This document shows, in pieces, positions 8,226 through 25,420 of a DNA stretch of 64,000 nt. The DNA lies in the NCBI GenBank assembly GCA_035693785.1, contig DASSFZ010000212.1, positions 4,647 through 68,646 on the forward strand, written 5' to 3'. A program made the translations under genes and the position numbers. The notes under the pieces are model-generated. The model was not told where the DNA came from. It saw nothing but the letters and a program-made list of their open reading frames with translations, and did not search any database. Within the stretch, counting starts at the first letter, position 1. Each line of letters begins with the position of its first letter. Source of the stretch: Anaerolineae bacterium (GTDB lineage: Bacteria > Chloroflexota > Anaerolineae > Fen-1058).

Positions 8226-8261
8226 CCCCCCCGCCTTACGGTGTATCGAAGAGCGACTCGA

Positions 8262-9884: not shown

Positions 9885-9979
9885 GCTCACCCCATCTCTC
9901 AACTGGCGCCAACGACGAGTGCCCTCCGCCCCGCGCGCCTTCACCGGCTGACTCGGCAGGCCTGATCGCGAATGGATGC

Positions 9980-10034
9980 TTGCTACTAGCAACACTTGTA
10001 TCTGTATAGTATTGGGAAACCGCACGGCGCACAA
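9980..10034 (-). promoter_or_regulatory. Candidate sigma70-like promoter plus palindromic operator upstream of rSAM-3
   Basis: Minus strand: TTGTGC (10034..10029), 17 nt spacer, TACTAT (10011..10006). About 13 nt further downstream lies the perfect palindrome TTGCTAgTAGCAA (9992..9980). The stretch is locally AT-rich. The hexamers match the consensus only 3/6 and 4/6. Confidence 0.25.
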
Positions 10035-10125
10035 TGGCGCGCGGTCGAGTTCCGACCTAGACCCCAGTCTAGTTCGCGCCTCAAGCGATGTGCCGGCCAC
10101 TGGGCGTAAGCCGAACCACGACAGG

Positions 10126-10917
10126 TCAGATGCGCTCACGCATGCGGACGTAGTAGCGGCTCAGCACCACATCGGCCAGCCCTGGAAATGCTCGGAGGAA
10201 TGCAATCAGGGGGCGCCAGCTCGTCGGCAGGATGTCATGGCGACGCGGATGCCGGAGCAGTCTGGCAACGCGTTCGGCGACGACGTCGGAACACATCACG
10301 CCGCGCACGCGCTGGCCGTTGGCCAGCTTCTCGGCCGCGCGCCGCAGGCGTGGGCTGAAGTTGGTGGCGACAAAGCCTGGGCTTAGCACCGTCACGCGAA
10401 TGCCGCTGTCCTGCACTTCGCGCCGCAGCGCGTCGGAGAAACCGACGATCGCGGATTTGGTCGCGCAATAGATGCTGGCGCCCGGTATCCCGATCAGACC
10501 GGCGAGGGAAGCGACGTTGATGATGTGCCCCGACGACTGGCGCAGCATGGCCGGCAGCACCGCCTGCACGCAATCGATCACCGCGATCAGATTCACGTCG
10601 ATCTGTTCGCACACCTGGTCGGGATCCAGATCGATCACGCGCCGCGGGTAACTCAACCCGGCATTATTGACGAGCACATCCACGCGCCTCCACCGGTCGA
10701 GGGTGGCCTGGACCATGTGCTGGATGGCCGCGCGATCGCGCACGTCGGTCGGGACGACGAGGGCGCGCGTCTCGTCGCCGATTGCAGCGGCCACCCGTTC
10801 GAGTTCTTCTCGTCGCCGCGCGGCCAGCGTCACACACATTCCGTCACGCGCCAGGCGACGCGCCGTTGCCTCGCCAATTCCACTCGATGCGCCTGTCACG
10901 ATAGCCACTTTGTCCAC
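10126..10917 (-). CDS. Short-chain dehydrogenase/reductase (SDR)
   Basis: VTGASSGIGEATARRLA Rossmann motif and YCATKSAIVGFSDAL (YxxxK). GTG start with AGGAG 6 nt upstream. Confidence 0.88.
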   Translation of the reverse strand: MDKVAIVTGASSGIGEATARRLARDGMCVTLAARRREELERVAAAIGDETRALVVPTDVRDRAAIQHMVQATLDRWRRVDVLVNNAGLSYPRRVIDLDPDQVCEQIDVNLIAVIDCVQAVLPAMLRQSSGHIINVASLAGLIGIPGASIYCATKSAIVGFSDALRREVQDSGIRVTVLSPGFVATNFSPRLRRAAEKLANGQRVRGVMCSDVVAERVARLLRHPRRHDILPTSWRPLIAFLRAFPGLADVVLSRYYVRMRERI

Positions 10918-10975
10918 GATCGACTCCTACGTTGGCCGCTTGCGCGTCGATCCGACGCCTGGGCGGCGCGGCACC

Positions 10976-12406
10976 TCAAGCGCGAGCGACCGACCTTTTA
11001 GTCCGCGCCGCTTTGACGACGGCCACTGCTCGCTTGATCGGCGCGCCGACGGCTGCGTGTCGCCAGGCAGGCCCTGTCGTCCCCAGGCGTGTGCCCAGGC
11101 GCATGATAGCCTTGGCGATGGCCGAATCGCGTTGACGCGGGGCGAGCCAGGTCGGTTCCCGCCGCGCGTGATTCAAGACTCGCTCCATCATCTTCGGCGC
11201 AAGCTCTGGTGACAAATAGAAACGCGGTTCCAGCAGATCGTCGTCCGAGAACGCCCCCCCTTCCTGTTGGAGCACCTCGGCCAGGCCGGTGGCCGGAAAG
11301 ATGCGCAGTCCGAATGAATACGTCACGGCCGTGGCGCGCATCTTGCCAATGGCTGTCAACGTCTCCTCGATCGTTGTCGCCGTCTCGCCTAGCCCGCCGA
11401 AGATCAGATGGAAGAGGAACGGCAACCTGGCCTGGCAGCAGCCCTCACTGCAGGCGGCTACGTCGTCCAGCGTGAACCCCTTGCGCAACCGATGCAGCAT
11501 CCCATCGTTTGCCGCGTCGATGCCCAGCTCGACGCCGCTGCAGCCGGCGCGCCTCATCAGGCAGGCCAGCTCGGGCGACAGCGAGGACGGGTTGGCTCCG
11601 CACACCCAGTGCAGGTCGAGCCTGCGCCGCAGTATCTCCTCGCAGATCGCCGCAGCGTGATCCGGCGGATACGTGAACACCGCATCCACGAAATGGATCT
11701 TCTTCACGCCGGCGCGCGCCAATCGCTCCAACTCTTCGCCTACGTTCTGCGGAGAGCGCAGCCGCACGTCTCGCCCCTCGATCACGGGGTAGTTGCAGTA
11801 CAGGCACCGAAACGGGCAACCCCGCTTGGTCTGGACGTTAACCGCGCTGCCTGCCAGCTCGTACGTCCGGGAGACTGCCCGATCGCGCGTGGGAATGGGC
11901 AAAGCATCGAGATCGCGCACACGAGCCGGTGGCTGCCTGTCGCCTGGCGAGTCGCGGTTCGTCACAACGCCTGGGACACGATGCGGGTCACCGCACGCCA
12001 GCCACAACGGGAACGCCTCTTCGCCTTCGCCGACAATCCCGATTTGCAGGTCCAAGAAGCGCAGTATGGCCTGAGGAAAGATGGAGAAGCCCGACCCGCC
12101 GGCCACGATGGGCGCATGGAACGCCTGACGGCAGGCATCGACGATAGGGCGTATCGCAGGCAGGTAACGCACGGGCGCATCGTAAGTCAGGTTGTCGATG
12201 TTTCGGATGGACAGGCCGATGCAATCCGGCTTGAACGTCTGCACGGCATCGCGCGCGACCTGCGCCGCATCCTTTGCAAAGCACAGGTCCAGCAGGCGCG
12301 TCTCGATGCCCCGCTGTCGCAGGCTGGCATCCACATAGGCGAGTCCCAGCGGCAGGACCGGATAGGGCGACTGCTCCCGATTGGTGTAGATGAGCAAGAC
12401 TCTCAT
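10976..12406 (-). CDS. B12-binding domain radical SAM enzyme (class B type)
   Basis: N-terminal MRVLLIYTNREQSPYPVLPLGLAYVDASLRQRGIETRLLDL is B12-binding-domain-like. It is followed by TKRGCPFRCLYCNYP (CxxxCxxC). The ATG at 12406 overlaps the upstream KS stop (ATGA). Confidence 0.85.
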   Translation of the reverse strand: MRVLLIYTNREQSPYPVLPLGLAYVDASLRQRGIETRLLDLCFAKDAAQVARDAVQTFKPDCIGLSIRNIDNLTYDAPVRYLPAIRPIVDACRQAFHAPIVAGGSGFSIFPQAILRFLDLQIGIVGEGEEAFPLWLACGDPHRVPGVVTNRDSPGDRQPPARVRDLDALPIPTRDRAVSRTYELAGSAVNVQTKRGCPFRCLYCNYPVIEGRDVRLRSPQNVGEELERLARAGVKKIHFVDAVFTYPPDHAAAICEEILRRRLDLHWVCGANPSSLSPELACLMRRAGCSGVELGIDAANDGMLHRLRKGFTLDDVAACSEGCCQARLPFLFHLIFGGLGETATTIEETLTAIGKMRATAVTYSFGLRIFPATGLAEVLQQEGGAFSDDDLLEPRFYLSPELAPKMMERVLNHARREPTWLAPRQRDSAIAKAIMRLGTRLGTTGPAWRHAAVGAPIKRAVAVVKAARTKRSVARA

Positions 12407-13674
12407 GCCACTGGCTTCCTGTACACGACGGCATTGTTGCGCCCGAAAAACGAGATCGTGTTTTGCAGGATCGTCCGAATGGGAATTGCCCGGCCCACGT
12501 TCGGCACGTAATCCAGATCGCATTCGGGATCAGGCTCGCGATAGTTGATCGTCGGGGGCACGAAACCGTGCTCCATCACTAACGCGCACGTCACCGCCTG
12601 CATGATCCCGGCCGCGCCCTGCGTATGCCCGAGCATCGACTTGATCGCGCTGACCGGCACGCGACACGCCGCTTCACCAAACACGTTCTTGATCGTCTTG
12701 GTCTCGTTGACGTCGTTCAACTGTGTACTGGTACCGTGCGCGCATACGTAATCCACCTCGTCAGGCTGTACGCCCGCCTCGTGCAACGCCAGGCGCATGG
12801 CCCGCGCCGACTGTTCGCTCGTCGGGCTGGGAGCCGTCATGTGATAAGCATCCGCCGACGCGCCGTAGCCGGCCACCTCCGCGTAGATATGCGCGCCGCG
12901 CCGCCGGGCATGCTCCCACTCTTCCAGCAGGATCACGCCTGCGCCCTCGCCCATCACGAATCCGTTGCGCGTACGGTCGAAGGGACGCGACGCGCGTTCC
13001 GGCTCATCGTTGTGCTGCGACAGCACGTTGAGCATCGCGTAACTGTAGAAGATGTAGGGCTGGATCGGCGCCTCTGCGCCGCCTGCGATCATCAAGTCGG
13101 CCTCGCCATACTGGATCTGGCGAAAAGCGTAGCCCACTGCATCGGTGGACGACGCGCACGCTGCGGCGGTGACCGTGCTATCACCCTGCAGGCCGAACAT
13201 CCCGTTCACGCTCAGCGCCACCTGTCCCAAGAAAGTGGTCAAGACGTGACGCGCGCAGCGCTGCGCCTCCGCTTCGTCGCCACGGGCGGCTGCGGCGAAC
13301 AAGTCGTCCAAAAGAGGCAGACGCGCTTCCAAATCCCCCGCCGCCGAACCGATGCTCACCCCAGCACGCGTCCGATCTTCGGCGTCGAGCTGCACATCGG
13401 CATCGGCCAGCGCCTGCTGGGTCGCAACCAGCATGAATTGATTCGCGCGATCGGCTTGATCGGTCCAACGCGCAACGGCGGCGGCATCCAGATAGCGGCG
13501 CACATCGAAGACCTTCACTTCGGCAGCCATCGTGGAGCGGTAGCCGCTGGCATCGAACGCCTGGATCGGCCCTGCACCGGAGCGACCCGCCTTGAGGTTC
13601 TCCCAGAAGTCGCGTTTGCCGATCCCAATCGGCGACACGATCCCCACGCCGGTCAGCGCCACACGTCTAGCCAT
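12403..13674 (-). CDS. Beta-ketoacyl-ACP synthase (KS, FabF-like, full Cys-His-His triad)
   Basis: Active-site AAACASSTDAVGY, CAHGTSTQLND and LGHTQGAAG. The start overlaps the upstream CLF-like gene by 8 nt. Confidence 0.92.
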   Translation of the reverse strand: MARRVALTGVGIVSPIGIGKRDFWENLKAGRSGAGPIQAFDASGYRSTMAAEVKVFDVRRYLDAAAVARWTDQADRANQFMLVATQQALADADVQLDAEDRTRAGVSIGSAAGDLEARLPLLDDLFAAAARGDEAEAQRCARHVLTTFLGQVALSVNGMFGLQGDSTVTAAACASSTDAVGYAFRQIQYGEADLMIAGGAEAPIQPYIFYSYAMLNVLSQHNDEPERASRPFDRTRNGFVMGEGAGVILLEEWEHARRRGAHIYAEVAGYGASADAYHMTAPSPTSEQSARAMRLALHEAGVQPDEVDYVCAHGTSTQLNDVNETKTIKNVFGEAACRVPVSAIKSMLGHTQGAAGIMQAVTCALVMEHGFVPPTINYREPDPECDLDYVPNVGRAIPIRTILQNTISFFGRNNAVVYRKPVA

Positions 13675-14968
13675 CGGCAGGATCTCCTTCGCGCCAGCGC
13701 TTGTAGACGAGCGCGCCGCACTTGCCCAGGACAGATAGGCTGTTGTGTAGGATCACGGCGGGCGAGGCTGCCCGCGCCTGGTTGGGCACGTAATCCAGGT
13801 CGCACATCGGATCCGGCTGGCTGTAATTGATTGTCGGCGGCAGCAAGCCGCGCCCCAGCGCCAGACAGCAGCTCGCCGCTTGCAGCGCGCCGTCGGCGCC
13901 CAACGTATACCCGAATATGGGCTTGATGGAACTGACCGGCACGTCGTACGCGTGTTCGCCCAGAGCCTGCTTGATGGCCAGCGTCTCCCGGATGTCGCCC
14001 GCTTGAGTGCCGATGCCGTGCGCGGCGATGAACTCGACGCAGTCAGGAGCCAGGGCCGCATCCGCCAGCGCCATGCGCATGGCGAGGCTGGTATCGCCTG
14101 GCGCGTCGTGCGCCGGCAGGTCGTTGGCGGGCAGGCACGTCGCGGCATAGCCGGCCAGTTCGGCGTAGACGTGCGCGCCGCGCCGCAGCGCATGCTGCAT
14201 CTCTTCCAAGACGAGAATGGCCGCACCCTCGCCGAGCACAAACCCGTCCCGCCCGGCATCGAACGGCCGGCAGGCGCGCTCTGGCTGATCGTTGCGGCGC
14301 GACAGCAAGCCGAGGCCGTCGAACAGGATTAGCGACGAATGCAGGATCGGCGCTTCGCTGCCGCCAGCGATCATGACATCGGCCTCGTCGTACTTGATCT
14401 GCCGATACGCATAGCCCAGCGCATCCATGCCGGCGGTCTCGGCGGCGTAGACCGTCACGCCCGGCCCGCGCAACTGAAAATTGACCGTGATGTTGCCGAA
14501 CGACGCGCCGCTGCTGCCGATGATGCACGACAGGGCGTTCATCTTGTGAATGCCGCCTGTCTGGATGCGCTCTATCTCGCCGCGCGCCATACGGATCGGG
14601 CCGGCAAACGTGCCGATGCTCGTGCCTGCGCGTTCGGAGTCGCTCGGGGTGAGGGTGAGATCGGCATCCTCCATCGCCATCTGGGCGGCCGCATACGCAA
14701 AGCCCGACACGCGCTCCATGAAGCGCGCCTGCTTGCGGTCGGTGTAATCGTTGATGGAGAAGCCATCCACGCTGGCTGCGATGTGCACGCGCTGGCCCGG
14801 CCGAGGCTCAAGCGTGCGGATCGGCCCGGCGCACGAGCGGCCTTGACGGATGGCCTGCCAGAAGGCTTCTTTCCCGATGCCGGCCGGCGACACGACGCCA
14901 ATGCCGGTCACCACCACGCGGCGGCGCGCGTTTTGTCGTGTCGAGGCGTCATGTGTCAGCATAACCAT
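13667..14968 (-). CDS. Ketosynthase-like protein lacking the active-site Cys (chain-length-factor-like)
   Basis: KS fold throughout. The Cys position reads YAAETAGMDALGY and the second His motif reads FGYTLGADG. Start moved to ATG 14968 (MVMLTHDA...). Confidence 0.82.
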   Translation of the reverse strand: MVMLTHDASTRQNARRRVVVTGIGVVSPAGIGKEAFWQAIRQGRSCAGPIRTLEPRPGQRVHIAASVDGFSINDYTDRKQARFMERVSGFAYAAAQMAMEDADLTLTPSDSERAGTSIGTFAGPIRMARGEIERIQTGGIHKMNALSCIIGSSGASFGNITVNFQLRGPGVTVYAAETAGMDALGYAYRQIKYDEADVMIAGGSEAPILHSSLILFDGLGLLSRRNDQPERACRPFDAGRDGFVLGEGAAILVLEEMQHALRRGAHVYAELAGYAATCLPANDLPAHDAPGDTSLAMRMALADAALAPDCVEFIAAHGIGTQAGDIRETLAIKQALGEHAYDVPVSSIKPIFGYTLGADGALQAASCCLALGRGLLPPTINYSQPDPMCDLDYVPNQARAASPAVILHNSLSVLGKCGALVYKRWREGDPADG

Positions 14969-15399
14969 CCGATTTCCCCGTAGTGCAGATTCGCCGTCAT
15001 CAACAGCGCCAGCACCCGCTTCTGAGGATTGGGAGAGCGCCATAGTTCTTTGCGAAACTCGAGTTCGCGCTGGTGAATGCGGGTCTCGCTCATCAGCGGC
15101 CGCGAGCAACACAAGGGAGCCAGCAGGTCGAGATACTCGACGAGCTGGCCGACGGTGGAGATCTCGGCGGCGCGGGCCTCCAGCGTTTCCTCCCACGATG
15201 GATCGACGTACCGAAACACGTCGGCCTCGAACTCGCGCTCGATGGCGATTATGAGTTCCACGATGTCCAGCGAATCGGCGTCGAGGTCTTCGCGAAAACG
15301 GGCCTGGAGCGTCACGTCGTCCGGCGCGACATTGAGCGTATGCACAATGACATTTCGCATTCGCTCAAACGTGTTAAGCGAGTTCTTGCGTTCGCTCAT
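14956..15399 (-). CDS. Acyl carrier protein with ~55-60 aa C-terminal extension
   Basis: LDADSLDIVELIIAIEREF contains the DSL phosphopantetheine-attachment motif. Start ATG 15399 has GGAGAGAGG upstream. The ORF continues to 14956, giving 147 aa. Confidence 0.78.
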   Translation of the reverse strand: MSERKNSLNTFERMRNVIVHTLNVAPDDVTLQARFREDLDADSLDIVELIIAIEREFEADVFRYVDPSWEETLEARAAEISTVGQLVEYLDLLAPLCCSRPLMSETRIHQRELEFRKELWRSPNPQKRVLALLMTANLHYGEIGWLC

Positions 15400-15886
15400 C
15401 GGAACCTCTCTCCGCGCGCAGCCGCTCACCGGTGTGGTCGCCGGGCGACGCAATGACCACCTCGCCCTCGGCGACTGTCCCGCCGCCGGTGGTGATGCGA
15501 CCTTGAATCACCATCACGCCCAGGCAGGCTCGAATCACCGTCGCTTCGATGCGCAGCGAGTCGCCGGGCCGCGCCGGTTGGCGAAAGCGAAAGTTGCGAA
15601 TGCGCGCCAGGAAACCCAGGTAGGCAGTAGCCTCGTCGTCGTTCGACCCTGCCCGCAAGGCAATCCCGCCGACCTGCGCCACCATTTCGACCAGCAGAAC
15701 ACCCGGCACAATGGGATGATCGGGGAAGTGCCCGGCGAAGTACGGCTCGTTGATGCTAACGTTCTTGATCGCCACCGCGCGCCGTCCCGGCTCAACTTCG
15801 AGGACGCGATCGACGAACAGGAAGGGATAGCGGTGGGGAAGCAGCCGAAAGATATCCTGAATGTCCACGGCGTCCACCTCGCTCAC
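15374..15886 (-). CDS. fabZ: 3-hydroxyacyl-ACP dehydratase
   Basis: [14 protein letters not shown] and [28 protein letters not shown] (canonical FabZ His and Glu motifs). The GTG start overlaps the FabG stop (GTGA). Confidence 0.9.
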   Translation of the reverse strand: [170 protein letters not shown]

Positions 15887-16626
15887 ATGGCCAGACCGCC
15901 GTCCACTACCAGCACATGGCCGGTGATGTACTCGGCGGCCGGGCTGCTCAGGAAGACGACGGCTTTGGCCACGTCTTCAGGCCGGCCCAGGCGCTGGAGT
16001 GGAATCGCCTGCACAAACTTCTCCTGAACGTGAGCCGGAATCGCTTTCACCATCCGCGTGTCGATGAACCCCGGCGCGACGACGTTGACGGTGATGCGGT
16101 AGGTCGCCAGCTCGCGGGCGAGCGCTTTGCTCAGACCGATCAGGCCGGCTTTGGCCGCGCTGTAGTTGGCCTGACCGGCCTGCCCCATGATCCCGCTGAT
16201 CGAGGCGACGTTGATGATGCGACCAGCCCGCTTTTTCATCATGGTCTTGGCGACGGCACGCGCGCAGTGAAACGCGCCCTTGAGGTTGATGTCGAGGACG
16301 TGGTCCCAGTGCTCGTCGCTCATCATCAGCAGCAGCCGATCGGCGGTAACCCCGGCGTTGTTCACCAGCACGTCGACACGGCCCCAGCGGTCGAGCACGG
16401 TCTTGACCATCGACCTGACCGCACCAGCGTCCGCCACGTCGGCGCACACGGCGACGCCCTCACCGCCGGCAGCGGCGACGTCGGAGACGAGCCGATCCGC
16501 GCTCGCCGCATCGCACACGTAGTTCACGGCCACGCTGGCGCCTTCTTGGGCGAGCGCCAAACAGATAGCGCGTCCGATCTCGCCGGTTCCGCCGGTGACC
16601 AACGCCACGCAGCCCGATAGCCTCAT
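15883..16626 (-). CDS. fabG: 3-oxoacyl-ACP reductase
   Basis: ALVTGGTGEIGRAICLALA and NYSAAKAGLIGLSKALA. Start moved to ATG 16626, which overlaps the FabI stop by 1 nt. Confidence 0.88.
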   Translation of the reverse strand: MRLSGCVALVTGGTGEIGRAICLALAQEGASVAVNYVCDAASADRLVSDVAAAGGEGVAVCADVADAGAVRSMVKTVLDRWGRVDVLVNNAGVTADRLLLMMSDEHWDHVLDINLKGAFHCARAVAKTMMKKRAGRIINVASISGIMGQAGQANYSAAKAGLIGLSKALARELATYRITVNVVAPGFIDTRMVKAIPAHVQEKFVQAIPLQRLGRPEDVAKAVVFLSSPAAEYITGHVLVVDGGLAM

Positions 16627-17417
16627 CACGCTTCCTTCACCGGCTCCGGCAGGCGAATGCCCAGGATGTTGAAGCCGCCGTCGACATACACCACTTCGCC
16701 GGTCACGGCGCCGGACAGATCGCTGCACAGCCACACGGCCGTCTTGCCCACGTCCTCGATGGTGACGCGCCGCCGCAGCGGGGCGATGTCCTCGAAAGTG
16801 CGAAACAGCGTCTTGAAACCGGTCACGCCGGCCGAAGCCAGCGTGCGAATCGGCCCGGGGCTGATGGCGTTGACGCGTATATGGCGCGGCCCCAAGTCGC
16901 AGGCCAGATAGCGCACGCTCGCTTCGAGCGCGGCCTTGGCCACACCCATCACGTTGTAGTGCGGCATCACTTGCCGGCTGCCGTGGAAGGTGAGGGTGAG
17001 GACGCTGCCGCCCGGGTTCATCAACGGCGCGGCGGCCCGCACCAGAGCCGTGAGCGAATAGGCGCTGATGTCGAGCGCCAAGTGAAAACCCTCGCGCGAG
17101 GTGTCGAGGTACGGCCGGTTGAGATCGTCGCGATTGGCGAAGGCGACGCTATGCACCAGGAAGTCCAGCGTCCCGAACGCCTGACGCGCTTTCTCAAACA
17201 GCGTCGCGATGTCCGCGTCGCGCGTCACGTCGCACGGCTCGACGAACTCGGCCCGCAGGCTGCGCGCCAGCGGCCGCACGCGTCGCTCCAGCGCGGGCAC
17301 GGCGTAACTGAAGCCGAGTGTCGCGCCCTCCGCGTGCAGAGCCTGGGCGATGCCCCAGGCAATGCTGTGATCGTTTGCCACGCCGAAGATCAGGCCTTGC
17401 TTGCCGCTGAGTAACAC
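16626..17417 (-). CDS. fabI: Enoyl-ACP reductase
   Basis: [36 protein letters not shown] and [18 protein letters not shown] are typical FabI motifs. GTG start with GAGGAGG upstream. Confidence 0.88.
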
Positions 17418-17563: not shown

Positions 17564-18805
17564 CTAAATCGCCGCGCGTTGCAGGATCAGGCACGCGTTT
17601 TGCCCGCCGAAGCCTGCCGAGTTGGAGAGCGCCACATCTACCCGGGCCTGACGCGCTGTGTTCGGTACGTAATCCAGGTCGCACTCCGGATCCGGATACT
17701 CGTAGTTGATCGTGGGCGGCAGCACGCCGTCGCAGATCGCTTTCACGCAGATCATCGCCTCCACCGCGCCGGCAGCGGCAATCAGGTGGCCTGTCATCGA
17801 CTTGGTCGAGCTGACCGGCACTCGCTGGGCATGCTCGCCGAACACCGACTTGATGGCGCGCGTCTCGATCGCGTCGTTGAGCGACGTCGAGGTGCCGTGC
17901 GCGTTAATGTAGTCCACGTCCTGCGGCGAGAGCCGGGCCTTGCGCAGCGCGAGATGCATAGCCCGCGCCAGGCCCTCGCCGTCCTCCGGAGGCGCGGTGA
18001 TGTGGTAAGCGTCGGCCGTCGCCGCATAGCCCACCAGCTCGGCGTATATGCGTGCGCCGCGCGCCTGCGCGTGCTCAAGCTCTTCCAGGATCACCACGCC
18101 CGCTCCCTCGGCCAGCACGAAGCCGTCGCGCCAGGCATCGAACGGGCGGCTGGCGCGCGTCGGCTCGGCGTTGCGCCGTGAGAGCGCGCGCATGGCGCTG
18201 AATCCGGCAACGGTCAGCGGCCCGACCGAGGCTTCCGTCCCGCCCGCGATCATCACGTCGGCGTCGTCGCGCCGGATGATCTCCGCTGCCTCGCCGATGG
18301 CGTGTGCGCCGGTGCTGCACGCCGACATGACGCAGAAATTCGGTCCCTTCACGCCCAGCGCCATGGCGATCTGGCTGGAAGCCATGCTGCTGATCCACAT
18401 CGGCACCAGCAACGGGTGGATGCGCTTGGGACCGTGTTCGAGCATCACGCGGAATTGCTCGAAGAGCGTGGTCGTGCCGCCTTTGCCGCTGCCGATAATC
18501 ACGCCGGTTCGCTCAGCGAGGCCGTTGTCGAAGCACAGACCCGTCTCCTGCACGGCTTGAAACGCGGCGGCCATCGCGTATTGCACAAACGGATCGAGTC
18601 GCCGCGCCTGCTTCGCGCCCAGAATGGACGCCGGGTCGAAGTCCTTGATTTCGGCCCCGATGTGGACGTCCCACTCCGAAGTGTCGAACTTCGTGATGAG
18701 GCCGACACCGGATTGCCCCGCGCACAGGGCTGACCACAGCGACGGAACGTCGGGCCCCAACGACGTCAACGCTCCCATACCGGTGATGACCACACGTCGA
18801 GTCAT
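17564..18805 (-). CDS. Beta-ketoacyl-ACP synthase II-like (full triad)
   Basis: MSACSTGAHAIGEA, NAHGTSTSLND, MTGHLIAAAG. Confidence 0.92.
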   Translation of the reverse strand: MTRRVVITGMGALTSLGPDVPSLWSALCAGQSGVGLITKFDTSEWDVHIGAEIKDFDPASILGAKQARRLDPFVQYAMAAAFQAVQETGLCFDNGLAERTGVIIGSGKGGTTTLFEQFRVMLEHGPKRIHPLLVPMWISSMASSQIAMALGVKGPNFCVMSACSTGAHAIGEAAEIIRRDDADVMIAGGTEASVGPLTVAGFSAMRALSRRNAEPTRASRPFDAWRDGFVLAEGAGVVILEELEHAQARGARIYAELVGYAATADAYHITAPPEDGEGLARAMHLALRKARLSPQDVDYINAHGTSTSLNDAIETRAIKSVFGEHAQRVPVSSTKSMTGHLIAAAGAVEAMICVKAICDGVLPPTINYEYPDPECDLDYVPNTARQARVDVALSNSAGFGGQNACLILQRAAI

Positions 18806-18834: not shown

Positions 18835-20097
18835 TCAAGCCGGCGCGGCGCCGTGCCCGTTGCGCCACTTGCCGAAGATTAGGCTCGCGTTGTGCCCACC
18901 GAATCCGGCCGAGTTGGACAGCGCTACGTCGACGCGGCGCACCAGGGGCTGGTTGGGCACGTAGTTCAAGTCGCAAGCCGGGTCCCGATACTCGTAGTTG
19001 ATCGTCGGCGGAATTATGCCGTCGTTGATGGCGCGCAGGCAGAAGATGGCCTCCACCGCGCCGGATGCGCCCAGTAGATGACCGGTCATCGACTTGGTCG
19101 AGCTGACCGGCAGGTCGTAAGCGTACTCACCGAAGACGCCCTTGAGCGCCAGCGTCTCGACGCGATCGTTGAGCGGCGTCGACGTGCCATGCGCGTTGAC
19201 GTAATGGACGTCTTCGGGCGCCAGGCCGGCCTTGTTCAGCGCAATGCGGATGGCGCGCACCAAACCGTCGCCACCCTCCACCGGAGCGGTGATGTGATGC
19301 GCGTCGGCCGTCGCGCCGTAACCCAGCAGCTCGCCGTAGATGCGCGCGCCGCGTCGCTGCGCGTGCTCGGCCGACTCGAGCACGAGCACGCCGGACCCTT
19401 CGCCGATGACGAACCCGTCGCGTTGGGCGTCGAACGGCCGGCTGGCATGCACCGGGTCATCGTTGCGACGCGAGAGCGCGCGCATGGCCGTGAAGCCGGC
19501 CACGCAAATGGGGTGGAGCGAGGCATCGCTGCCGCCTGCAATCATCACATCGGCGTCGCCGCGCCGGATGACCTCGGCGGCCTCGCCGATCGAATGTGCG
19601 CTGGTGCAGCACGCCGAGACAATGGCGAAGTTGGGTCCCTTGGCGCCCACCCGCATGGCAACGTGAGCCGACGCCATATCGCAAATCATCATCGGGATCA
19701 GGAAGGGACTGACCCGTTCCGGCCCGTAACGATCGAGCGTCCGCAGCTCGTCGCACAGGGTGATGGTGCCGCCTTTGCCCGAACCGATCAGCACGCCGAC
19801 CCGCTCGGCGTCGACCTCGTCCATCTTCAGCCCGGCGTCGGCAACGGCGCGGTCGGCTGCGTACAGCGCGTATTGCACAAATCGATCGAGTCGCCGGGCC
19901 TCCTTGCGGCTGCAACAGACGGCTGCATCGAAGTCGCGTACCTCGGCGGCGATCTGGCTGTCGAAAGGCGTGGGATCGAACGATTGAATGCGCCGCACGC
20001 CGGAGCGACCTTCGAGCAGCGCCGTCCACACTTCGTCCACTTCATGCCCCAGCGAGATCAAAATACCCATGCCGGTGACAACCATGCGTCGGCTCAT
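18835..20097 (-). CDS. Beta-ketoacyl-ACP synthase II-like (full triad)
   Basis: VSACCTSAHSIGEA, NAHGTSTPLND, MTGHLLGASG. Start moved to ATG 20097 (GGAGAT upstream). Confidence 0.92.
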   Translation of the reverse strand: MSRRMVVTGMGILISLGHEVDEVWTALLEGRSGVRRIQSFDPTPFDSQIAAEVRDFDAAVCCSRKEARRLDRFVQYALYAADRAVADAGLKMDEVDAERVGVLIGSGKGGTITLCDELRTLDRYGPERVSPFLIPMMICDMASAHVAMRVGAKGPNFAIVSACCTSAHSIGEAAEVIRRGDADVMIAGGSDASLHPICVAGFTAMRALSRRNDDPVHASRPFDAQRDGFVIGEGSGVLVLESAEHAQRRGARIYGELLGYGATADAHHITAPVEGGDGLVRAIRIALNKAGLAPEDVHYVNAHGTSTPLNDRVETLALKGVFGEYAYDLPVSSTKSMTGHLLGASGAVEAIFCLRAINDGIIPPTINYEYRDPACDLNYVPNQPLVRRVDVALSNSAGFGGHNASLIFGKWRNGHGAAPA

Positions 20098-20126
20098 ACG
20101 CCCGATCTCCAATCAGGTCGGCCAGG

Positions 20127-20558
20127 TCAACGTGCGGATTCGTCGCGGGGCATGCTCAAGACGACTTCACCTTCGGCCACCAGGTCGTCGCCGGCCTTCA
20201 CCTGGCCGCGCACGCAGACAAACCCACGTCGCCCAGCAGCGACTTCGACTTCGAGTGTCAAGGCGTCTCCCGGCCCAGCCGGGCGAACGATGTGAAAGTT
20301 CTCGATGCTCGCCAGGTAGCCGGCGCGCCCGGCGGCATCCGTTCCCAGCGACGCAGTCAGCCGACCCGCCTGGGCAATCGCTTCGATCAGCCACACACCG
20401 GACCAGTCAGGCGCGCTCGTCGCCAGCGGCTCGCCGATGCTAATCACATTGCGGGCCACGCCGCGCCGGCCCGGCTCAATCGCGAGCACGCCGTCGACGC
20501 GCAGCATCGGCGGTCGGTGCGGCAGGACGGCCAGCACGTCGGCGCTATACAGGTTCAA
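20127..20558 (-). CDS. FabZ/FabA-like hotdog-fold protein lacking the catalytic His motif
   Basis: VLPHRPPMLRVDGV and WLIEAIAQAG are retained. The GHFP segment is replaced by ATSAPDWSG. Confidence 0.75.
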   Translation of the reverse strand: MNLYSADVLAVLPHRPPMLRVDGVLAIEPGRRGVARNVISIGEPLATSAPDWSGVWLIEAIAQAGRLTASLGTDAAGRAGYLASIENFHIVRPAGPGDALTLEVEVAAGRRGFVCVRGQVKAGDDLVAEGEVVLSMPRDESAR

Positions 20559-22302
20559 CGGTTGCTCCGCATGTGCACCACGACCGCAGATAAGTCTGGA
20601 GCGCCTCCACGTAGCGCTGAAAGTCGCTCAAGGCCTCTGGCGATCCGGCCGTGTGCGCGCCATTGAGCGTTGGGCCAGGATCCGCGCCGAGACCGATGAG
20701 CAGCCGGCGCAGCGCCGCGTTGTCCAGCCGGAGGGCCACGTCGGCCCCATCCGCCTGCGCCGAAAACGCCTGGACCTCGCCCTGCACAATGGCCAGGCTT
20801 CCAGAACCGATGTCTGTGTCCATCCGAACCGTCGTCGAGTACGCAGGGAACTGCTGCGCCAGGTGTGCATTGACCAGCGGCTTGAGCACGGCGATGAGCT
20901 CCGACCATTCAGCCAAGGTGGCAGGGACGCAGTAGTGGTGCAGCAGCGTCGGCCAGGCGCTCTTGAGCAGGCCTTCGCGCACCACGTCGCGCGCAGTCTT
21001 GATACCCGCCGGATTGAACACCTGGATGAGTTTAGCCAGATGAGGGTTCTCGGCGCGCAGACGGGTCCACATGCGAGGCAGCGCGAACTCCTGGCGCAAG
21101 TAGTACGCCTTGTACAATTCGCGGAGCGTCGCGTAGGCCGATTCGGGCGACACGTCTTCACCACACACCCGGTGATGCGGGTTGTAATCTTCCCAATCGT
21201 GCGCGAGCAGCAGCCCTTTGCGCCGGCACTCGTCGTATAACGGCGTGCCTGGGTACGGTGTGGCGAACCCGATCTGTGCGAATTCGAGATCGAGCTCGCG
21301 CGCGAATTCGATCATCGACCAGCGTTGGGCGCGATCCGGCTGAAGCCCGTCGATCAGCAGCGTCGCCCACAGTGCAACATCGCACTCGTGCAACGCCTGG
21401 ACGGCCTGGCGTAGGTTGTCGCGGCGAGATGCGTCGGCCACGTCGCACGGCTGCACCGTCAGCAACTGTACGACGAAGCCCGCTTCGCGCATCTTGGCGA
21501 CGATCTCTGGCTGTTGTCGGATCGCCAGGACATCGGCATGACACCACATCCAGGGGCGCACTTGGCGCTGGATGAGCTCCTCGCAGATATGGCGCACACG
21601 GCCGATGTCGGCCATGAAGTGATCGTCGAGCACCATGATCAGCTCGGCACCCCGGCTCACCAGGTCGGCGATCTCGCCGACGACGCTAGCGGCCGAGCGC
21701 GCCCGCCAGCCGCTCGTCGGGCTGCCCCGGCTGCTCTCGATAGCGTCCAGCCGCTTGCCGAAGGCCGTGTACCGGGCGCGGTCGCAGATTCGGGCCGGCA
21801 GGTGCGCGTCGAGATCGGGCAGCGGGGACGCAGCAGGCGTACTGACAACCGCTCCGTCGTCCCGATAGCACAATCCGGCCACCTGGCGGGGATCCGCGCC
21901 CGATACCAGCTGGCGGAATGCGATTTCGCCCTCACCCTGGACGACGAAGTCCACGCATCCGGACGCGATGATCTCCGGCGCGACGGCGGTTGTCGCAGCG
22001 CCACCCATGGCGATCGGCGCCGACAGCCCGGCCTGCTTGAGCTGGCGTGATAGGGCCACCGCGGTTGCCACCCAGGGGAGCGCCAGCGCGGTCAGGCCCA
22101 CCCAGTCCGGCTGAAAGGCTTCCGCCTCTCCAACCACGTCGCTCGCATCCAAGCCATCCGCTTCAGCATCCAGAATTCTGACCTCGGCCTCCGGTGGCGG
22201 GCTGGCAGCCAGGTACTCCAGCGCCAGCGGTGGAAGGCGGGCGGCATCCGGATTCCACAGACTATGTGCCGGTCGCGGCGGATTGATCAGAAGGACTCTC
22301 AT
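20545..22302 (-). CDS. B12-binding-domain radical-SAM-like protein without the CxxxCxxC cluster motif
   Basis: N-terminal MRVLLINPPRPAHSLWNPDAARLPPLALEYLAAS is B12-domain-like. Where class B rSAMs have SRGCPxxCxFC, this protein reads ESSRGSPTSGWRARSAASVVGEI. Confidence 0.75.
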   Translation of the reverse strand: MRVLLINPPRPAHSLWNPDAARLPPLALEYLAASPPPEAEVRILDAEADGLDASDVVGEAEAFQPDWVGLTALALPWVATAVALSRQLKQAGLSAPIAMGGAATTAVAPEIIASGCVDFVVQGEGEIAFRQLVSGADPRQVAGLCYRDDGAVVSTPAASPLPDLDAHLPARICDRARYTAFGKRLDAIESSRGSPTSGWRARSAASVVGEIADLVSRGAELIMVLDDHFMADIGRVRHICEELIQRQVRPWMWCHADVLAIRQQPEIVAKMREAGFVVQLLTVQPCDVADASRRDNLRQAVQALHECDVALWATLLIDGLQPDRAQRWSMIEFARELDLEFAQIGFATPYPGTPLYDECRRKGLLLAHDWEDYNPHHRVCGEDVSPESAYATLRELYKAYYLRQEFALPRMWTRLRAENPHLAKLIQVFNPAGIKTARDVVREGLLKSAWPTLLHHYCVPATLAEWSELIAVLKPLVNAHLAQQFPAYSTTVRMDTDIGSGSLAIVQGEVQAFSAQADGADVALRLDNAALRRLLIGLGADPGPTLNGAHTAGSPEALSDFQRYVEALQTYLRSWCTCGATVEPV

Positions 22303-22349: not shown

Positions 22350-23846
22350 TTAGGCGCGGGCCAGCGCATTCCGGCGCTGCATGTCCTTTTCACGATGAAA
22401 GATGTTGTAGTTGCAGAACGGCATCATGCGCCCGTCGGTCGTGAGGACGTGATAGCAGCATTTCATCGCCCGGCTCTGGTCGTAGGTGCTGGGATCCATG
22501 AAGCCGTGGACGCCGATCATCTTGCCCATGCCGACCAGCGTCTTGTCTTTGGCGTAAGCCGCCGCGCAGCAGCTGAGCGCCCGTCCCACTTTCTCGGACT
22601 CCATCACCGCCGAGGCTGACCATAGCGTCTCCAGGTTCGATTGCAGATCGCGCATCCACTGCTCGCTGTTGAACAGCAGCCGGTTTTGCAGGTAGTTCAG
22701 CATCTTGTCGGCCTGGGTGATGCGGGCCAGCGAGACCCAATCGTTCGGCCCGGCCTTCAGGAAGTAGCCCACCGCCGAGCAGGAGGGGTGCGAGCACGGG
22801 ATGGATACAAAATCCTCCTTGGTCATCAAGCCGTCCATCTGAGCCTCGAGCAGGTTCAGGATCGTCGTCAGTGTGATGTGACGCTGCATGTCGTGCGGCA
22901 GATGGTTGGAGAGCGCGTCGCCACAATAGATCAGCGGCTGCAGCGTCAGCGAGTGGATGAAGTCGTTCTCCAACACCAGCCGAATCGTCTCGCCGACGGC
23001 ATCCTCGTTGAGGTCTTGCGCGATGGTGGTGATCAGCAGCGTCTTGACGTTGTACTTAGCCAGATGGTCGAAGGCCAAGCGCTTCATCTTGCTGAGATCG
23101 GCGCCGCGCAGCCGCCTGTAAGTCTCCGCTTTGAACCCATCGAACTGCAACTGGATGTAGGCCCCGGTCTCGGCGATGCGGCGGACGAACTCTTCGTCGC
23201 GGGCGAGGCGCAGGCCGTGCGTGTTGACGGCCACCTTGGTGGCGACGGGATGGTTGATCGCAATGTCCAGCAGCTCGAAGAATTGCGGATGCACGGTCGG
23301 CTCGCCGCCGGTCAGGCACACGATCTCCGCGCGGCCCTCGGCCTGCGCCAGACGATCGAGCATGAAGGTCATTTGCTCCGGCGACAGATACCAGGCATGC
23401 TGATTCCGGGCGAAGCAGATCGGGCAATGCAGATCGCAGTGATCGGTAATCTCGATCAGAGGATAGCAGGTGTGCTGCTGGTGATCGTCGCACAGGCCGC
23501 AGTCCTCGGGACACTGCGTTTTGCGCTGTGTGGCGTGCCACAGCGGAATGGTGCCAGGCTTGGTCCGGCTGAGCGCGTGCAGCCACCAGTCTGCGTCGGC
23601 AGCCATGAGCGCCTCGAAGTGACCGTGCTCCGGGCAAAACTTGCGCATGAACACCTGGCCGTCGCGGAAGAGGATCTGCGCGTTGATCAGCGCCAGGCAC
23701 TCCGGACACGTGCTACGCGTGATGCCGAAGAAGATGTGGTCCTGATCCTGTCTGGTATTCGCTCGCTCGATTGCCGCTTGAACCGGGTCATGGACTTGAG
23801 CGCCTAGCGGGACAACCGGCGCGTCGACGGGGACGGTCGTACTCAT
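22350..23846 (-). CDS. Radical SAM enzyme with N-terminal zinc-ribbon/rubredoxin-like motif (COG1964, MJ0619/Tes-like architecture)
   Basis: TRSTCPECLALINAQILFRDGQVFMRKFCPEHGHF, followed by ITDHCDLHCPICFA (CxxxCxxC). Start moved to ATG 23846 (AGGAGG upstream). Confidence 0.8.
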   Translation of the reverse strand: MSTTVPVDAPVVPLGAQVHDPVQAAIERANTRQDQDHIFFGITRSTCPECLALINAQILFRDGQVFMRKFCPEHGHFEALMAADADWWLHALSRTKPGTIPLWHATQRKTQCPEDCGLCDDHQQHTCYPLIEITDHCDLHCPICFARNQHAWYLSPEQMTFMLDRLAQAEGRAEIVCLTGGEPTVHPQFFELLDIAINHPVATKVAVNTHGLRLARDEEFVRRIAETGAYIQLQFDGFKAETYRRLRGADLSKMKRLAFDHLAKYNVKTLLITTIAQDLNEDAVGETIRLVLENDFIHSLTLQPLIYCGDALSNHLPHDMQRHITLTTILNLLEAQMDGLMTKEDFVSIPCSHPSCSAVGYFLKAGPNDWVSLARITQADKMLNYLQNRLLFNSEQWMRDLQSNLETLWSASAVMESEKVGRALSCCAAAYAKDKTLVGMGKMIGVHGFMDPSTYDQSRAMKCCYHVLTTDGRMMPFCNYNIFHREKDMQRRNALARA

Positions 23847-24068
23847 GGTTCCTCCTGTTTGGCACAGCGAGTTCCTGGCAACTGCAGGTGAACTGCGCGA
23901 TTCCGCCGGAACGGGAATAGCTATCGAACTCGGATCGAAACGGCGGGTCACACCCTTGCCGGCGAGTAGAGTTCAGCCATCTTCGTGTTATTAGCGGAAT
24001 GGCAACGACGACTCGGAGCTGTCTTTGAAGAGAGTATGCGATGCGGCGCAGGCAAGCAACAGCGGAAA

Positions 24069-24241: not shown

Positions 24242-25420
24242 ATGAAAGCCGTCAACCTTATGAGGATTGTCGTGATATCCATGCTCATCGCGGCCTGCGA
24301 GGAAAGCACGGCCGCCCAGCGCGAGATTCAACCCGCCCCAGCAGCGTCACCGGGAATCGCGCCGGATACTGTGTCCGCTTCCGGCAAGGTGATGCCGGAG
24401 CGGTGGGCTGTGCTCAGCTTTCAAGTGAGTGGCGCGGTAAAGGCCGTGCTGGCGCAGCCTGGCGACGTCGTCCACACGGGCGACGTGTTGGTGCGGCTGG
24501 ACGATGTGGATGCGCAGATGGCCCTGGCGCAAGCCGAGGCCGGGCTGGCACTGGCCCAGGCACAATTAGCGCAGCAGACAGCCAGCCCGCGCTCCGAGCA
24601 GATCGCAATCGCCGAGCAGGCGGTTCAATCGGCTGAAGCGGAGCTGCGGGCAGCTTCGGCGCAATTAGCGCAGGCGCAGGCCGGCCCGCCGGCCGCCGAG
24701 ATCGCGGCTGCCCAGGCGGCGCTGGCCGCAGCCGCGCGCGACCTGAAAGTCGCGCAGGACACCTACGACCGGGTCAAAGACATCGGGGGCACGCCGGAGG
24801 AGCAGGCTCGCGCGGCGCTCGAGGCGGCCAGGCAGGCGCATCGTGCCGCTCAGGAACGTGTGAACCAACTGATATCCGGTGCGGCAGAGAACGAGCTGAA
24901 TGCCTTGCGGGCGCAAGTCACCGCTGCGCAGGCCAAGCGCGACGCGGCCAGAGCGCAGGTCGAGCTTCTGCAGGCAGGCTCTTCTGAGGAGGAGTTGTCC
25001 GTTGCGCAGGCCACTGTCGCGCAGGCTCAGGTGGCTGTCGATGCGGCACAGGCGCGTTTGTCCAGGTTGCAGATCGTAGCACCGTTCGACGGCAGCGTCG
25101 GCGCTGTGTCCGTCCGCGCCGGTGAACTTGCAGCGCCGGGTCAGCCGGTAGTGACGTTGGGCGACCTGAACCGTCTACACGTGGAAACTACCGACCTGAA
25201 CGAGATCGACATTGCGCGCGTGCGCGAAGGGCAAACGGCTCTCGTTACCTTCGATGCGCTGCCGGGGATGGCGCTCACGGGCACTGTCACGCGCATCAGC
25301 CCGATGTCCACGCCCGGGCAGGGCACTGCCAACTTCACCGTATGGATCGAGCTGGCCGCAACCGATCCGGCGCTGCGCTGGGGTATGACGGCATTTGTCG
25401 AAATCAGCACCGAGCCATAG
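24242..25420 (+). CDS. HlyD/MacA-family periplasmic adaptor lipoprotein
   Basis: Lipobox MLIAAC. Long Ala/Gln-rich coiled coil. C-terminal beta-barrel segment is RLQIVAPFDGSVGAVSVRAGE ... VTFDALPG. GGAGAA lies 6 nt before the ATG. Confidence 0.85.
   Translation: MKAVNLMRIVVISMLIAACEESTAAQREIQPAPAASPGIAPDTVSASGKVMPERWAVLSFQVSGAVKAVLAQPGDVVHTGDVLVRLDDVDAQMALAQAEAGLALAQAQLAQQTASPRSEQIAIAEQAVQSAEAELRAASAQLAQAQAGPPAAEIAAAQAALAAAARDLKVAQDTYDRVKDIGGTPEEQARAALEAARQAHRAAQERVNQLISGAAENELNALRAQVTAAQAKRDAARAQVELLQAGSSEEELSVAQATVAQAQVAVDAAQARLSRLQIVAPFDGSVGAVSVRAGELAAPGQPVVTLGDLNRLHVETTDLNEIDIARVREGQTALVTFDALPGMALTGTVTRISPMSTPGQGTANFTVWIELAATDPALRWGMTAFVEISTEP

Follow-up and report, generated by a model that had tools for sequence, protein, structure and literature searches.

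Tes and other described systems

How bacteria synthesize membrane-spanning and branched tetraether lipids (brGDGTs), which underpin widely used palaeoclimate proxies, is an open problem. Bacterial homologues of the euryarchaeal enzyme Tes (GDGT-MAS) are standing candidates for this synthesis, and our search of the literature found no experimental test of any of them (PMC11868695; PMC13459092). Another radical SAM enzyme, Mss of Thermotoga maritima and Thermoanaerobacter ethanolicus, has been shown to join two fatty-acyl tails (PMC13159169), and Mss models are reported to have a catalytic architecture in common with Tes (PMC13274423). At the sequence level, however, Mss is a separate family; its discovery came about precisely because Tes, used as a BLAST query, has no match in those genomes (PMC13159169). 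Radical SAM genes also occur in the "ladderane-type" FASII clusters of anammox bacteria and Desulfotalea (Rattray et al. 2009, PMC2649909; TIGR04072).

We analyzed a Tes-like radical SAM gene in a 64,000-nucleotide stretch of DNA; the whole of that stretch is referred to here as the window.

22350..23846, minus strand: Tes/GDGT-MAS-family radical SAM gene, operon gene 1 (assigned by Pfam, NCBIfam, PDB and AF2 model)

The ATG (23846-23844) is preceded at 4 nt by an AGGAGG Shine-Dalgarno sequence (23851-23856, minus strand), and the 498-aa product is identical to catalogued protein P0001. A longer GTG-started open reading frame (to 23951, 533 aa) was dropped because ATG 23846 has the AGGAGG and fits the catalogued 498-aa protein; a plus-strand reading of 22350-23846 was dropped because of stops inside. 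The gene is the single Tes homologue of its genome (250.5 bits with NF045702 run on the genome).

Profile and structure matches identify the product as a genuine GDGT-MAS/Tes homologue. It matched Pfam PF23545 Zn_ribbon_HMPTM (65 bits, E = 3.6e-18, cut-off 27) and PF04055 Radical_SAM (68 bits). The top NCBIfam matches were TrsS NF045646 (293 bits, E = 2.5e-87, aligned end to end) and Tes NF045702 (260 bits, E = 3.5e-77), and the closest solved structure by sequence was GDGT-MAS (PDB 7TOL, E = 2.6e-56). An AF2 model (pLDDT 81.7, pTM 0.83) matched 7TOL/7TOM in Foldseek over ~490 aligned columns (E = 3e-36, TM 0.73 to 0.75), while the remaining radical SAM structures matched in the core only (TM ~0.35). 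These results support the Tes/GDGT-MAS family placement that a preliminary description of the gene had made from motif resemblance. The description had named best matches to an unrelated family, such as one for cofactor maturation, as evidence against this placement; the cofactor-maturation and RiPP radical SAM families (mycofactocin, MoaA, PqqE, NirJ, SkfB) were rejected, as they matched the core only, at ≤53 bits.

Since the scores fall below the curated cut-offs for both Tes (450 bits) and TrsS (490 bits) and the protein lies in a separate bacterial clade (see below), it counts as a relative within the Tes family but not as an orthologue of Tes. Other bacterial homologues score similarly with NF045702 (250 to 369 bits in ten compared; 250 to 375 bits for those proposed for brGDGT synthesis), all under the Tes cut-off. 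TrsS is a (seleno)protein family, although the window gene needs no in-frame TGA; it is uncharacterized and only listed among selenoproteins (PMC13188914), and our literature search for it returned one table entry and no function.

Cluster motifs and the C-terminal site

The following motif regions were located in the window protein.

23625..23708, minus strand: rubredoxin-like mononuclear-Fe motif C47-x2-C50-x20-C71-x2-H74, with the spacing C9X2C12X20C33X2H36 of GDGT-MAS (PMC9433317)
23472..23513, minus strand: N-terminal auxiliary [4Fe-4S] motif C112-x3-C116-x2-C119-x2-H122 (CPEDCGLCDDH), aligning to C73, C77, C80 and a His of GDGT-MAS
23415..23438, minus strand: radical SAM cluster motif C137-x3-C141-x2-C144 (CDLHCPIC)
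22779..22799, minus strand: PCSHPSC motif, in which C356 aligns to C338 of MJ0619 and C351 is the extra Cys of all non-euryarchaeal homologues
22404..22514, minus strand: C-terminal cluster region with H447 (site of the labile Met439), C463/C464, V467 (site of Tyr459) and C478

The Cys-x2-Cys...Cys-x2-His element and the radical SAM motif quoted in the preliminary description were both found, the first within TRSTCPECLALINAQILFRDGQVFMRKFCPEHGHF (residues 43-77) and the second within ITDHCDLHCPICFA (residues 133-146), and the long C-terminal domain with more Cys that it mentioned contains eight (308, 351, 356, 426, 427, 463, 464, and 478). A SAM-binding GGEPT follows at residues 180-184. C47/C50/C71/H74, C112/C116/C119/H122 (85/85 sequences), C137/C141/C144, C356, C463, and C478 are all invariant among the 85 homologues compared, and the window protein retains all 55 columns that are invariant over 28 aligned homologues.

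In common with euryarchaeal Tes (MJ0619, 7TOL/7TOM; MA_1486; NF045702), to which it has ~27% identity, the window protein has the full-length fold, C-x2-C-x20-C-x2-H, CPxDCGLCxxH, CxxxCxxC, GGEPT, and three C-terminal Cys, C356, C463, and C478, which align with C338, C455, and C470 of MJ0619. It differs from euryarchaeal Tes in lacking a ~20-residue insert ahead of the SHxxC motif, in the loss of C438 and gain of Cys127, Cys351, and Cys464, and in the replacement of Met439 by His447 and of Tyr459 by Val467. Met439 and Tyr459 are reported to be fully conserved in 1000 archaeal homologues (PMC9433317) and were each present in 9/9 euryarchaeal Tes compared here. With C438 lost and C351 and C464 gained, the Cys ligands of the C-terminal cluster also appear to be rearranged. 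The extra Cys127/351/464 and the absence of the insert are shared with the brGDGT-candidate bacterial homologues of Ca. Solibacter usitatus, Ca. Koribacter versatilis, and Edaphobacter aggregans (PMC8941075; PMC10087280), which are of the same non-euryarchaeal type.

Clade A and its chain-building operons

A careful maximum-likelihood tree (gene set extracted by frame; supports given as UFboot/SH-aLRT) placed the window protein inside a 28-row bacterial clade, clade A (99/98), in a subclade with P0002, P0003, and P0006 (100/98). Euryarchaeal Tes formed a separate clade (100/100), with which the window protein did not group. The terminal branch of the window protein was ordinary (0.23). At the Met439 position, every clade-A row (28/28) had His, as did every row (12/12) of a neighboring Chloroflexota clade. 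Bryobacteraceae, Terriglobia, and Acidobacteriaceae rows, which represent the brGDGT-candidate side (the named strains' own proteins are outside the tree), lie in another clade with Gln, Lys, or Arg at this position.

Close relatives of the window protein are very rare. The nearest (67 to 72% identity) are on contigs too short for gene context; the contigs of P0002 to P0005 span 1.4 to 3 kb, with nothing downstream on that of P0002, and a metagenome scan with the window protein found no close relative. Distribution is patchy, with a homologue in 15/301 genomes of the class and none in a same-genus genome. In G220, a genome of the same family, the homologue is divergent and lies in another context, with NifD/K-like genes after it.

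The Tes-like gene and 12 co-directional genes downstream form a tight 13-gene operon (junctions -26 to +146 nt). Upstream are a 395-nt intergenic region and a divergent HlyD-family gene (24242-25420, plus strand), an arrangement that bears out the earlier description of the gene as the head of a lipid operon. The downstream genes are as follows.

20545..22302, minus strand: B12-binding radical SAM-like protein without CxxxCxxC, 47 nt downstream of the Tes-like gene; Pfam finds the B12-binding domain only; reads SRGSPTSGWRARS
20127..20558, minus strand: divergent FabZ-like hotdog dehydratase (PF07977, 31 bits; TIGR01750, 70 bits, under cut-off)
18835..20112, minus strand: FabF-type ketosynthase (TIGR03150, 607 bits, over cut-off)
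17564..18805, minus strand: FabF-type ketosynthase (TIGR03150, 614 bits, over cut-off)
16626..17417, minus strand: FabI-type enoyl-ACP reductase
15883..16629, minus strand: FabG-type ketoreductase (TIGR01830, 313 bits, over cut-off); start picked for its 4-nt overlap with fabI
15374..15886, minus strand: FabZ dehydratase (TIGR01750, 154 bits, cut-off 155)
14956..15399, minus strand: long non-canonical ACP, ~147 aa, with a DSL motif and a C-terminal extension (PF00550; TIGR00517, 66.5 bits, under cut-off)
13667..14968, minus strand: CLF-type ketosynthase paralogue (fabF model, 377 bits, under cut-off)
12403..13674, minus strand: ketosynthase partner of the CLF-like protein, 8-nt overlap
10976..12523, minus strand: B12-binding radical SAM protein of the "lipid biosynthesis/ladderane-type" family, true start uncertain (TIGR04072, 345 bits against a cut-off of 360)
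10126..10917, minus strand: SDR oxidoreductase, with a 14-nt overlap with the next gene, radical SAM/SPASM (8556-10139)

The CLF-type protein reads YAAETAGMDALGY where the downstream ketosynthase reads AAACASSTDAVGY, leaving the nucleophile position without Cys. Beyond the SDR gene, the operon continues unbroken into a radical SAM/PaaK-ligase peptide cluster. Separate housekeeping acpP, fabD, fabG, fabF, and fabI genes are present elsewhere in the genome, which is 89% complete. Its only FabZ homologues are those in the operon, so part of the operon might serve general fatty-acid synthesis.

This setting differs from that of euryarchaeal Tes: the window gene belongs to a bacterium whose fatty-acid genes are of the ester type, and it is in a FAS/PKS-like operon and not beside isoprenoid lipid genes. 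Features in common with the ladderane-type clusters are an ACP dedicated to the cluster, variants of FabZ, FabF homologues in pairs, and a B12-binding radical SAM protein, but no gene resembling a phytoene desaturase was seen in the window operon, and the host belongs with Chloroflexota by its tree neighbors and shows no sign of anammox.

The surroundings of clade A are gene clusters of a type II fatty-acid/polyketide-like kind, and its members almost always adjoin chain-building genes. Of the loci compared, 11 had a ketosynthase within 10 kb, and all 11 belong to clade A; among 46 loci outside the clade with ≥5 kb on both sides, none had a ketosynthase, or an SDR within 1 kb. The recurring clade-A pattern comprises the Tes-like gene, a KR, a second SDR, a FabA/ApeI-like dehydratase, CLF, KS, and a long ACP, with a B12-radical SAM gene in many cases, and it was found in Acidobacteriota, Myxococcota, Bacillota, Actinomycetota, and unbinned contigs. 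KR/SDR, dehydratase, KS, and ACP gene types occur in the window operon and in loci L035, L048, L049, L051, L065, L083, L091, L092, and L093. The ACP gene abuts the Tes-like gene in L065 (24-nt gap) and L093 (stop/start overlap), and L092 additionally contains a Condensation-domain protein. Members of this operon family are labeled as coming from at least six bacterial phyla, and the clade-A rows include MAGs of Pyrinomonadaceae, Myxococcota, and Syntrophomonadaceae.

In the clade with the Bryobacteraceae, Terriglobia, and Acidobacteriaceae rows, by comparison, a class I SAM methyltransferase is the next gene in 39/68 loci, and a ketosynthase is never near. Bacterial Tes homologues are thus not one thing: one clade is found with methyltransferase and membrane-lipid genes, and clade A is found in private chain-building clusters with their own ACP. 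The conserved synteny of clade A is a functional link; as to substrate form, it fits an ACP-bound chain, a free chain, and a chain in a glycerolipid equally.

Candidate reaction and alternatives

For the window protein, the homology, the fold, the ligand motifs, the place in clade A, and the conserved synteny are observed, and the cofactor content, chemistry, substrate, and product are inferred. The reading that we favor, with a rough probability of 45%, is that it is a multi-cluster enzyme on the GDGT-MAS/Tes scaffold that would use radical chemistry to form a C-C bond on a saturated acyl chain produced by the operon. Predicted cofactors are a rubredoxin-like Fe site, an N-terminal [4Fe-4S] cluster, the radical SAM [4Fe-4S] cluster, and a C-terminal [4Fe-4S] cluster. 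By analogy with GDGT-MAS, SAM would be cleaved to a 5'-deoxyadenosyl radical, which would take a hydrogen off an unactivated sp3 carbon of the saturated acyl chain; the substrate radical would then be held on the C-terminal cluster until a second round produced a C(sp3)-C(sp3) bond. The presumptive substrate is the chain built by the KS/CLF pair, two FabF, FabG, FabZ, and FabI on the private long ACP, either still carrier-bound or newly released at the time of coupling. The presence of FabI implies that this chain is saturated, and saturated chains are the substrate type of GDGT-MAS (PMC9433317). The reaction may give a specialized lipid with a tail-to-tail dimer or with an intramolecular ring or cross-link. 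That the enzyme might couple or modify unactivated acyl tails had been suggested in the preliminary description, and the clade-wide link to chain-building genes strengthens this suggestion. We nominate this compact operon family as one in which unactivated fatty chains could undergo radical C-C bond formation.

A more specific proposal, which we regard as unlikely, is that clade A contains the first Tes-scaffold enzymes to act on a chain still attached to a private long ACP and not on membrane phospholipids; within a type II FAS/PKS line, such enzymes would join two saturated tails or form a carbocycle. If true, lipids that are long and dicarboxylic, macrocyclic, or ring-bearing would be made by a biosynthetic logic that is new. 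Since the operon in this Chloroflexota genome runs unbroken into the peptide cluster, even a lipopeptide whose tail is cross-linked is conceivable as the product.

The strongest alternative is that the window protein is a bacterial Tes in the classical sense, for which finished glycerolipids are the substrate: the tails of two phospholipids, or both tails of one, would be joined into diabolic-acid- or brGDGT-type membrane-spanning lipids, and the FAS genes would only supply tails. GDGT-MAS does use complete phospholipids of archaea as its substrates, and it binds ester phospholipids of E. coli as well (PMC9433317; PMC13274423); in addition, the published brGDGT-synthesis candidates are bacterial Tes homologues (PMC8941075; PMC10087280). 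The operon's two FabF, its FabG, and its FabZ resemble canonical proteins, with scores at about or over the NCBIfam equivalog cut-offs, and the location of the genome's only FabZ homologues in the operon is also consistent with a general supply of tails. However, the Acidobacteriota rows from orders of known brGDGT producers (Bryobacteraceae, Terriglobia, Acidobacteriaceae) lie in the other clade, with no FAS genes near and with methyltransferase, Lgt, or PlsY as neighbors. The KS/CLF pair and unusual long ACP of clade-A clusters, like the Condensation-domain protein in L092, are hallmarks of specialized products; the window operon contains no glycerolipid acyltransferase, and the gene is patchy in the class and absent from a same-genus genome. 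On balance, we consider the classical function of the window protein rather doubtful. Clade A probably makes something else, and a Tes match in a metagenome does not automatically indicate a brGDGT producer.

Coupling on the operon's own chain must also be weighed against another radical chemistry on the same scaffold, which could be methylation (the old HMPTM/"class D" idea), sulfur insertion via a kept C-S bond, desaturation, or epimerization. A modified auxiliary-cluster site, as suggested by the uniform His at the Met439 site in clade A and the altered C-terminal Cys set, would suit such a change, and the GDGT-MAS mechanism runs via a C-S(cluster) intermediate that is in principle a possible end point (PMC9433317). 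The slightly better NCBIfam match to TrsS, a family without known function (PMC13188914), points the same way. In comparison, the M439A variant of GDGT-MAS retains activity, which means that the chemistry can stay the same when that site changes (PMC9433317), no sulfur-donor gene was seen in the window operon, and the operon already has a B12-radical SAM protein of a methylase-typical family. As for methylation, the "class D methylase" label for MJ0619 rests on a methyltransferase activity that Lloyd et al. were unable to reproduce (PMC9433317). A different chemistry seems to us improbable.

A decaying, non-catalytic remnant, which the rarity of the lineage and the lost CxxxCxxC of the adjacent B12-like protein (20545-22302) might suggest, is very hard to reconcile with an intact frame, a strong Shine-Dalgarno sequence, an ordinary terminal branch, and retention of GGEPT, the 55 invariant columns, and all family-invariant Cys/His ligands.

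Tetraether synthase homology and operon position

The radical SAM gene at 22350-23846 (-) encodes a true homologue of the archaeal tetraether synthase (GDGT-MAS/Tes) by sequence and by structure. Its best NCBIfam matches were TrsS (293 bits; cut-off, 490), a listed selenoprotein family without assigned function, and Tes (260 bits; cut-off, 450), with each remaining radical SAM family at ≤53 bits; all ten bacterial homologues scored also fell under both cut-offs. Pfam recognized Zn_ribbon_HMPTM (65 bits) and Radical_SAM (68 bits), and the top solved structure by sequence was GDGT-MAS 7TOL (E = 2.6e-56). An AlphaFold2 model built from 28 homologues (pLDDT 81.7, pTM 0.83), whose sole long low-confidence stretch was the N-terminal cluster loop, matched 7TOL/7TOM over ~490 columns (E = 3e-36; TM, 0.73 to 0.75), whereas the next structural matches (SkfB, viperins, anSME, and MoaA) covered the core alone (TM, ~0.35). 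The preliminary description had proposed this family from motif resemblance, and profile, sequence, and fold comparisons all bear it out, none giving an unrelated radical SAM family as the best match. Both motif strings that it cited lie in the protein, at residues 43-77 and 133-146, and eight more cysteines occur in the C-terminal half.

The frame is open on the minus strand, while the plus strand is interrupted by stops. Translation from ATG 23846 gives a 498-aa product, the same as the catalogued protein P0001. A GTG at 23951 is also in frame; the ATG was preferred given AGGAGG four bases upstream and the identity with P0001. On its 5′ side the gene is separated by a 395-nt spacer from a divergent HlyD-family gene, and on its 3′ side it is followed by 12 co-directional genes with junctions of -26 to +146 nt. 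It therefore heads an operon, as had been suggested, and is the only Tes homologue in the host genome.

Genes of the window operon, in order
22350-23846 (-), Tes-like radical SAM
20545-22302 (-), B12-binding radical SAM-like protein without CxxxCxxC (reads SRGSPTSGWRARS; Pfam, B12 domain alone)
next, weak FabZ-like hotdog
next, two FabF, both over the equivalog cut-off
next, FabI, FabG, and FabZ
14956-15399 (-), acyl carrier protein (ACP) of ~147 aa with a C-terminal extension (66.5 bits; acpP cut-off, 70.45)
next, CLF-like ketosynthase (KS), then KS
10976-12523 (-), B12-radical SAM, TIGR04072 "lipid biosynthesis B12-binding/radical SAM protein" (345 bits; cut-off, 360)
last, SDR, overlapping by 14 nt (10126-10139) the first gene of a radical SAM/SPASM peptide-like cluster

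Since canonical acpP (C526), fabD with fabG (C163), three further fabF, and one further fabI lie elsewhere in the host genome, most of the operon is an additional, dedicated chain-building set. In the 89%-complete genome, FabZ (TIGR01750) is matched by the two operon genes alone; the operon may share its FabZ with general synthesis, or the ~10% of the genome that is missing may contain a housekeeping copy. The peptide-like cluster opens with a radical SAM/SPASM/PqqD gene and also holds MarR, two PaaK-like ligases, and an ABC transporter; because the SDR overlaps that first gene, the lipid genes and this cluster may be transcribed as a single unit and might even serve a single pathway.

A bacterial clade linked to chain-building genes

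In a tree of 85 rows and 482 columns (IQ-TREE, LG+C20), euryarchaeal Tes formed one clade (support, 100/100), and the window protein fell within a 28-row bacterial clade, clade A (99/98), where it grouped with relatives P0002, P0003, and P0006 (100/98). All 11 loci with a KS within 10 kb belonged to clade A; among the 46 non-clade-A loci with at least 5 kb on each side, none had a KS, and none had an SDR within 1 kb. Comparable clusters recur on annotated contigs of clade A members.

Gene clusters at four clade A loci
L091: Tes-like, B12-radical SAM, ketoreductase (KR), SDR, FabA/ApeI-like dehydratase, short KS (CLF-like), KS, 132-aa ACP
L092: Tes-like, KS-like, KR, ACP, two dehydratases, KS, Condensation-domain protein, two further KS
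L093: radical SAM, CDGSH, Tes-like, KR, SDR, dehydratase, CLF, KS, ACP overlapping a second Tes-like gene
L065 (Pyrinomonadaceae): Tes-like, ACP, intact B12-radical SAM, 242-aa unknown, KS, KR, 133-aa ACP, dehydratase

Downstream of the gene for P0006 (48% identical; locus L009) come a small open reading frame and a B12-radical SAM 40% identical to the second one of the window, 10976-12523 (-); this neighbor is also the closest context match of the latter, whose TIGR04072 family is a lipid biosynthesis/ladderane-type one. The counterpart of 20545-22302 in the L065 cluster (L065:1861-3183) has an intact motif (ATRGCPFTCEYCS; Radical_SAM, 69 bits), and the loss of CxxxCxxC in 20545-22302 seems specific to the window lineage. 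Long ACPs with a C-terminal extension (130 to 147 aa versus ~80) occur at window 14956-15399 (-), L091:11251-11649, L092:3478-3912, L093:12049-12477, and L065:5831-6232. Paralogous Tes-like pairs lie 3 to 9 kb apart in L026, L048, L083, and L093; the window has one copy.

Among the papers searched, none was seen to link a clade of the Tes family to type II FAS/PKS clusters. Ladderanes and Desulfotalea hydrocarbons have prompted an unsettled discussion of clusters that combine FASII and radical SAM genes, a B12-radical SAM among them (PMC2649909; PMC13459092). The window gene encodes a Tes-scaffold enzyme of a distinct, uncharacterized, FAS/PKS-linked bacterial clade.

Metal sites and candidate chemistry

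Alignment to M. jannaschii MJ0619, with ligands as published by Lloyd et al. (PMC9433317), suggests that the cofactors are those of GDGT-MAS. C47-x2-C50-x20-C71-x2-H74 has the spacing of C9X2C12X20C33X2H36; C112-x3-C116-x2-C119 plus H122 corresponds to C73, C77, C80, and the His; C137-x3-C141-x2-C144 is retained; and C356, C463, and C478 pair with C338, C455, and C470. In GDGT-MAS, a saturated phytanyl chain loses a hydrogen from its terminal carbon, and the radical is stored on the C-terminal cluster as a C-S bond until a second SAM cleavage leads to a C(sp3)-C(sp3) bond (PMC9433317; PMC13459092). The window enzyme may direct this type of radical chemistry at the operon's own saturated acyl chain, a reading to which we give a probability of roughly 0.45. 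It draws on the conserved scaffold and ligands, on FabI, which implies a saturated chain, and on coupling across phyla to a private KS/CLF-KR-dehydratase-ACP set, with the ACP abutting Tes-like genes in two loci. Being compact, the operon would lend itself to tests of whether fatty chains undergo radical C-C bond formation.

We consider the classical alternative, coupling of finished membrane phospholipids, unlikely. Somewhat less probable still is non-coupling chemistry (methylation, sulfur retention, or other) at an altered C-terminal site. In that region C438-Met439 of MJ0619 is replaced by Val446-His447 and Tyr459 by Val467; Met439 and Tyr459 were reported to be completely conserved across 1000 archaeal homologues, and the M439A variant to be still active (PMC9433317). 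Among 85 sequences, the Met439 position was Met in euryarchaeal Tes (9/9), His in clade A (28/28) and the neighboring Chloroflexota clade (12/12), and Gln, Lys, or Arg in the main bacterial clade. A dead gene, with frame open and ligands retained, is very improbable.

Other bacterial homologues and distribution

That bacteria carry Tes homologues has been known since Zeng et al. (PMC8941075), and these proteins were proposed to synthesize brGDGTs (PMC10087280), a role still without experimental confirmation in a 2025 study (PMC11868695). Sahonero-Canavesi et al. found them in just 3 of 14 iso-diabolic-acid-producing Acidobacteria; the enzyme that they identified in Thermotogae and Clostridia, Mss, is a different radical SAM protein (PMC13159169). 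Rows from Bryobacteraceae, Terriglobia, and Acidobacteriaceae, groups discussed for brGDGTs, fell in the main bacterial clade (those of loci L012-L090 that are not in clade A). At 39 of 68 loci there (e.g., L024:11412-12215), the next gene downstream, on the strand of the Tes homologue, encodes a ~268-aa class I SAM methyltransferase (PF08241); Lgt-like genes are present at 8 loci and PlsY at 6. This Tes-methyltransferase association could be relevant to methyl-branched tetraether lipids. From sequence, fold, and synteny, the separation of clade A predicts that the "bacterial Tes" candidates form groups that differ in function.

All bacterial homologues among the 85 sequences and one from Thaumarchaeota lack a ~20-residue euryarchaeal insert and have in common three additional near-invariant cysteines (127, 351, and 464). 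The latter, from a MAG of this phylum of major GDGT producers (L084, the single sequence examined), also has Gln at the Met439 position; being of bacterial type, it shows that euryarchaeal features reported as universal in archaea fail for one Thaumarchaeota sequence.

The window protein's lineage is rare: just five clusters among 5.8 billion clustered proteins had 48 to 72% identity, followed by thousands at ~40%. GTDB species genomes held >597 relatives (best, 42 to 44% identical) in Chloroflexota, Acidobacteriota, Actinomycetota, Myxococcota, and other phyla. Within the host's class, 15 of 301 genomes had a homologue, none above 45% identity, and the same-genus genome among them had none. 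A same-family genome carries a divergent, long-branched Tes-like gene basal to clade A (40% identity; locus L106, G220:C809, region 7273-12517) in a context wholly unlike the window operon: a hotdog thioesterase-like protein precedes it, and the first of two nitrogenase component-1-type genes (NifD/K-like, PF00148) overlaps it by 11 nt.
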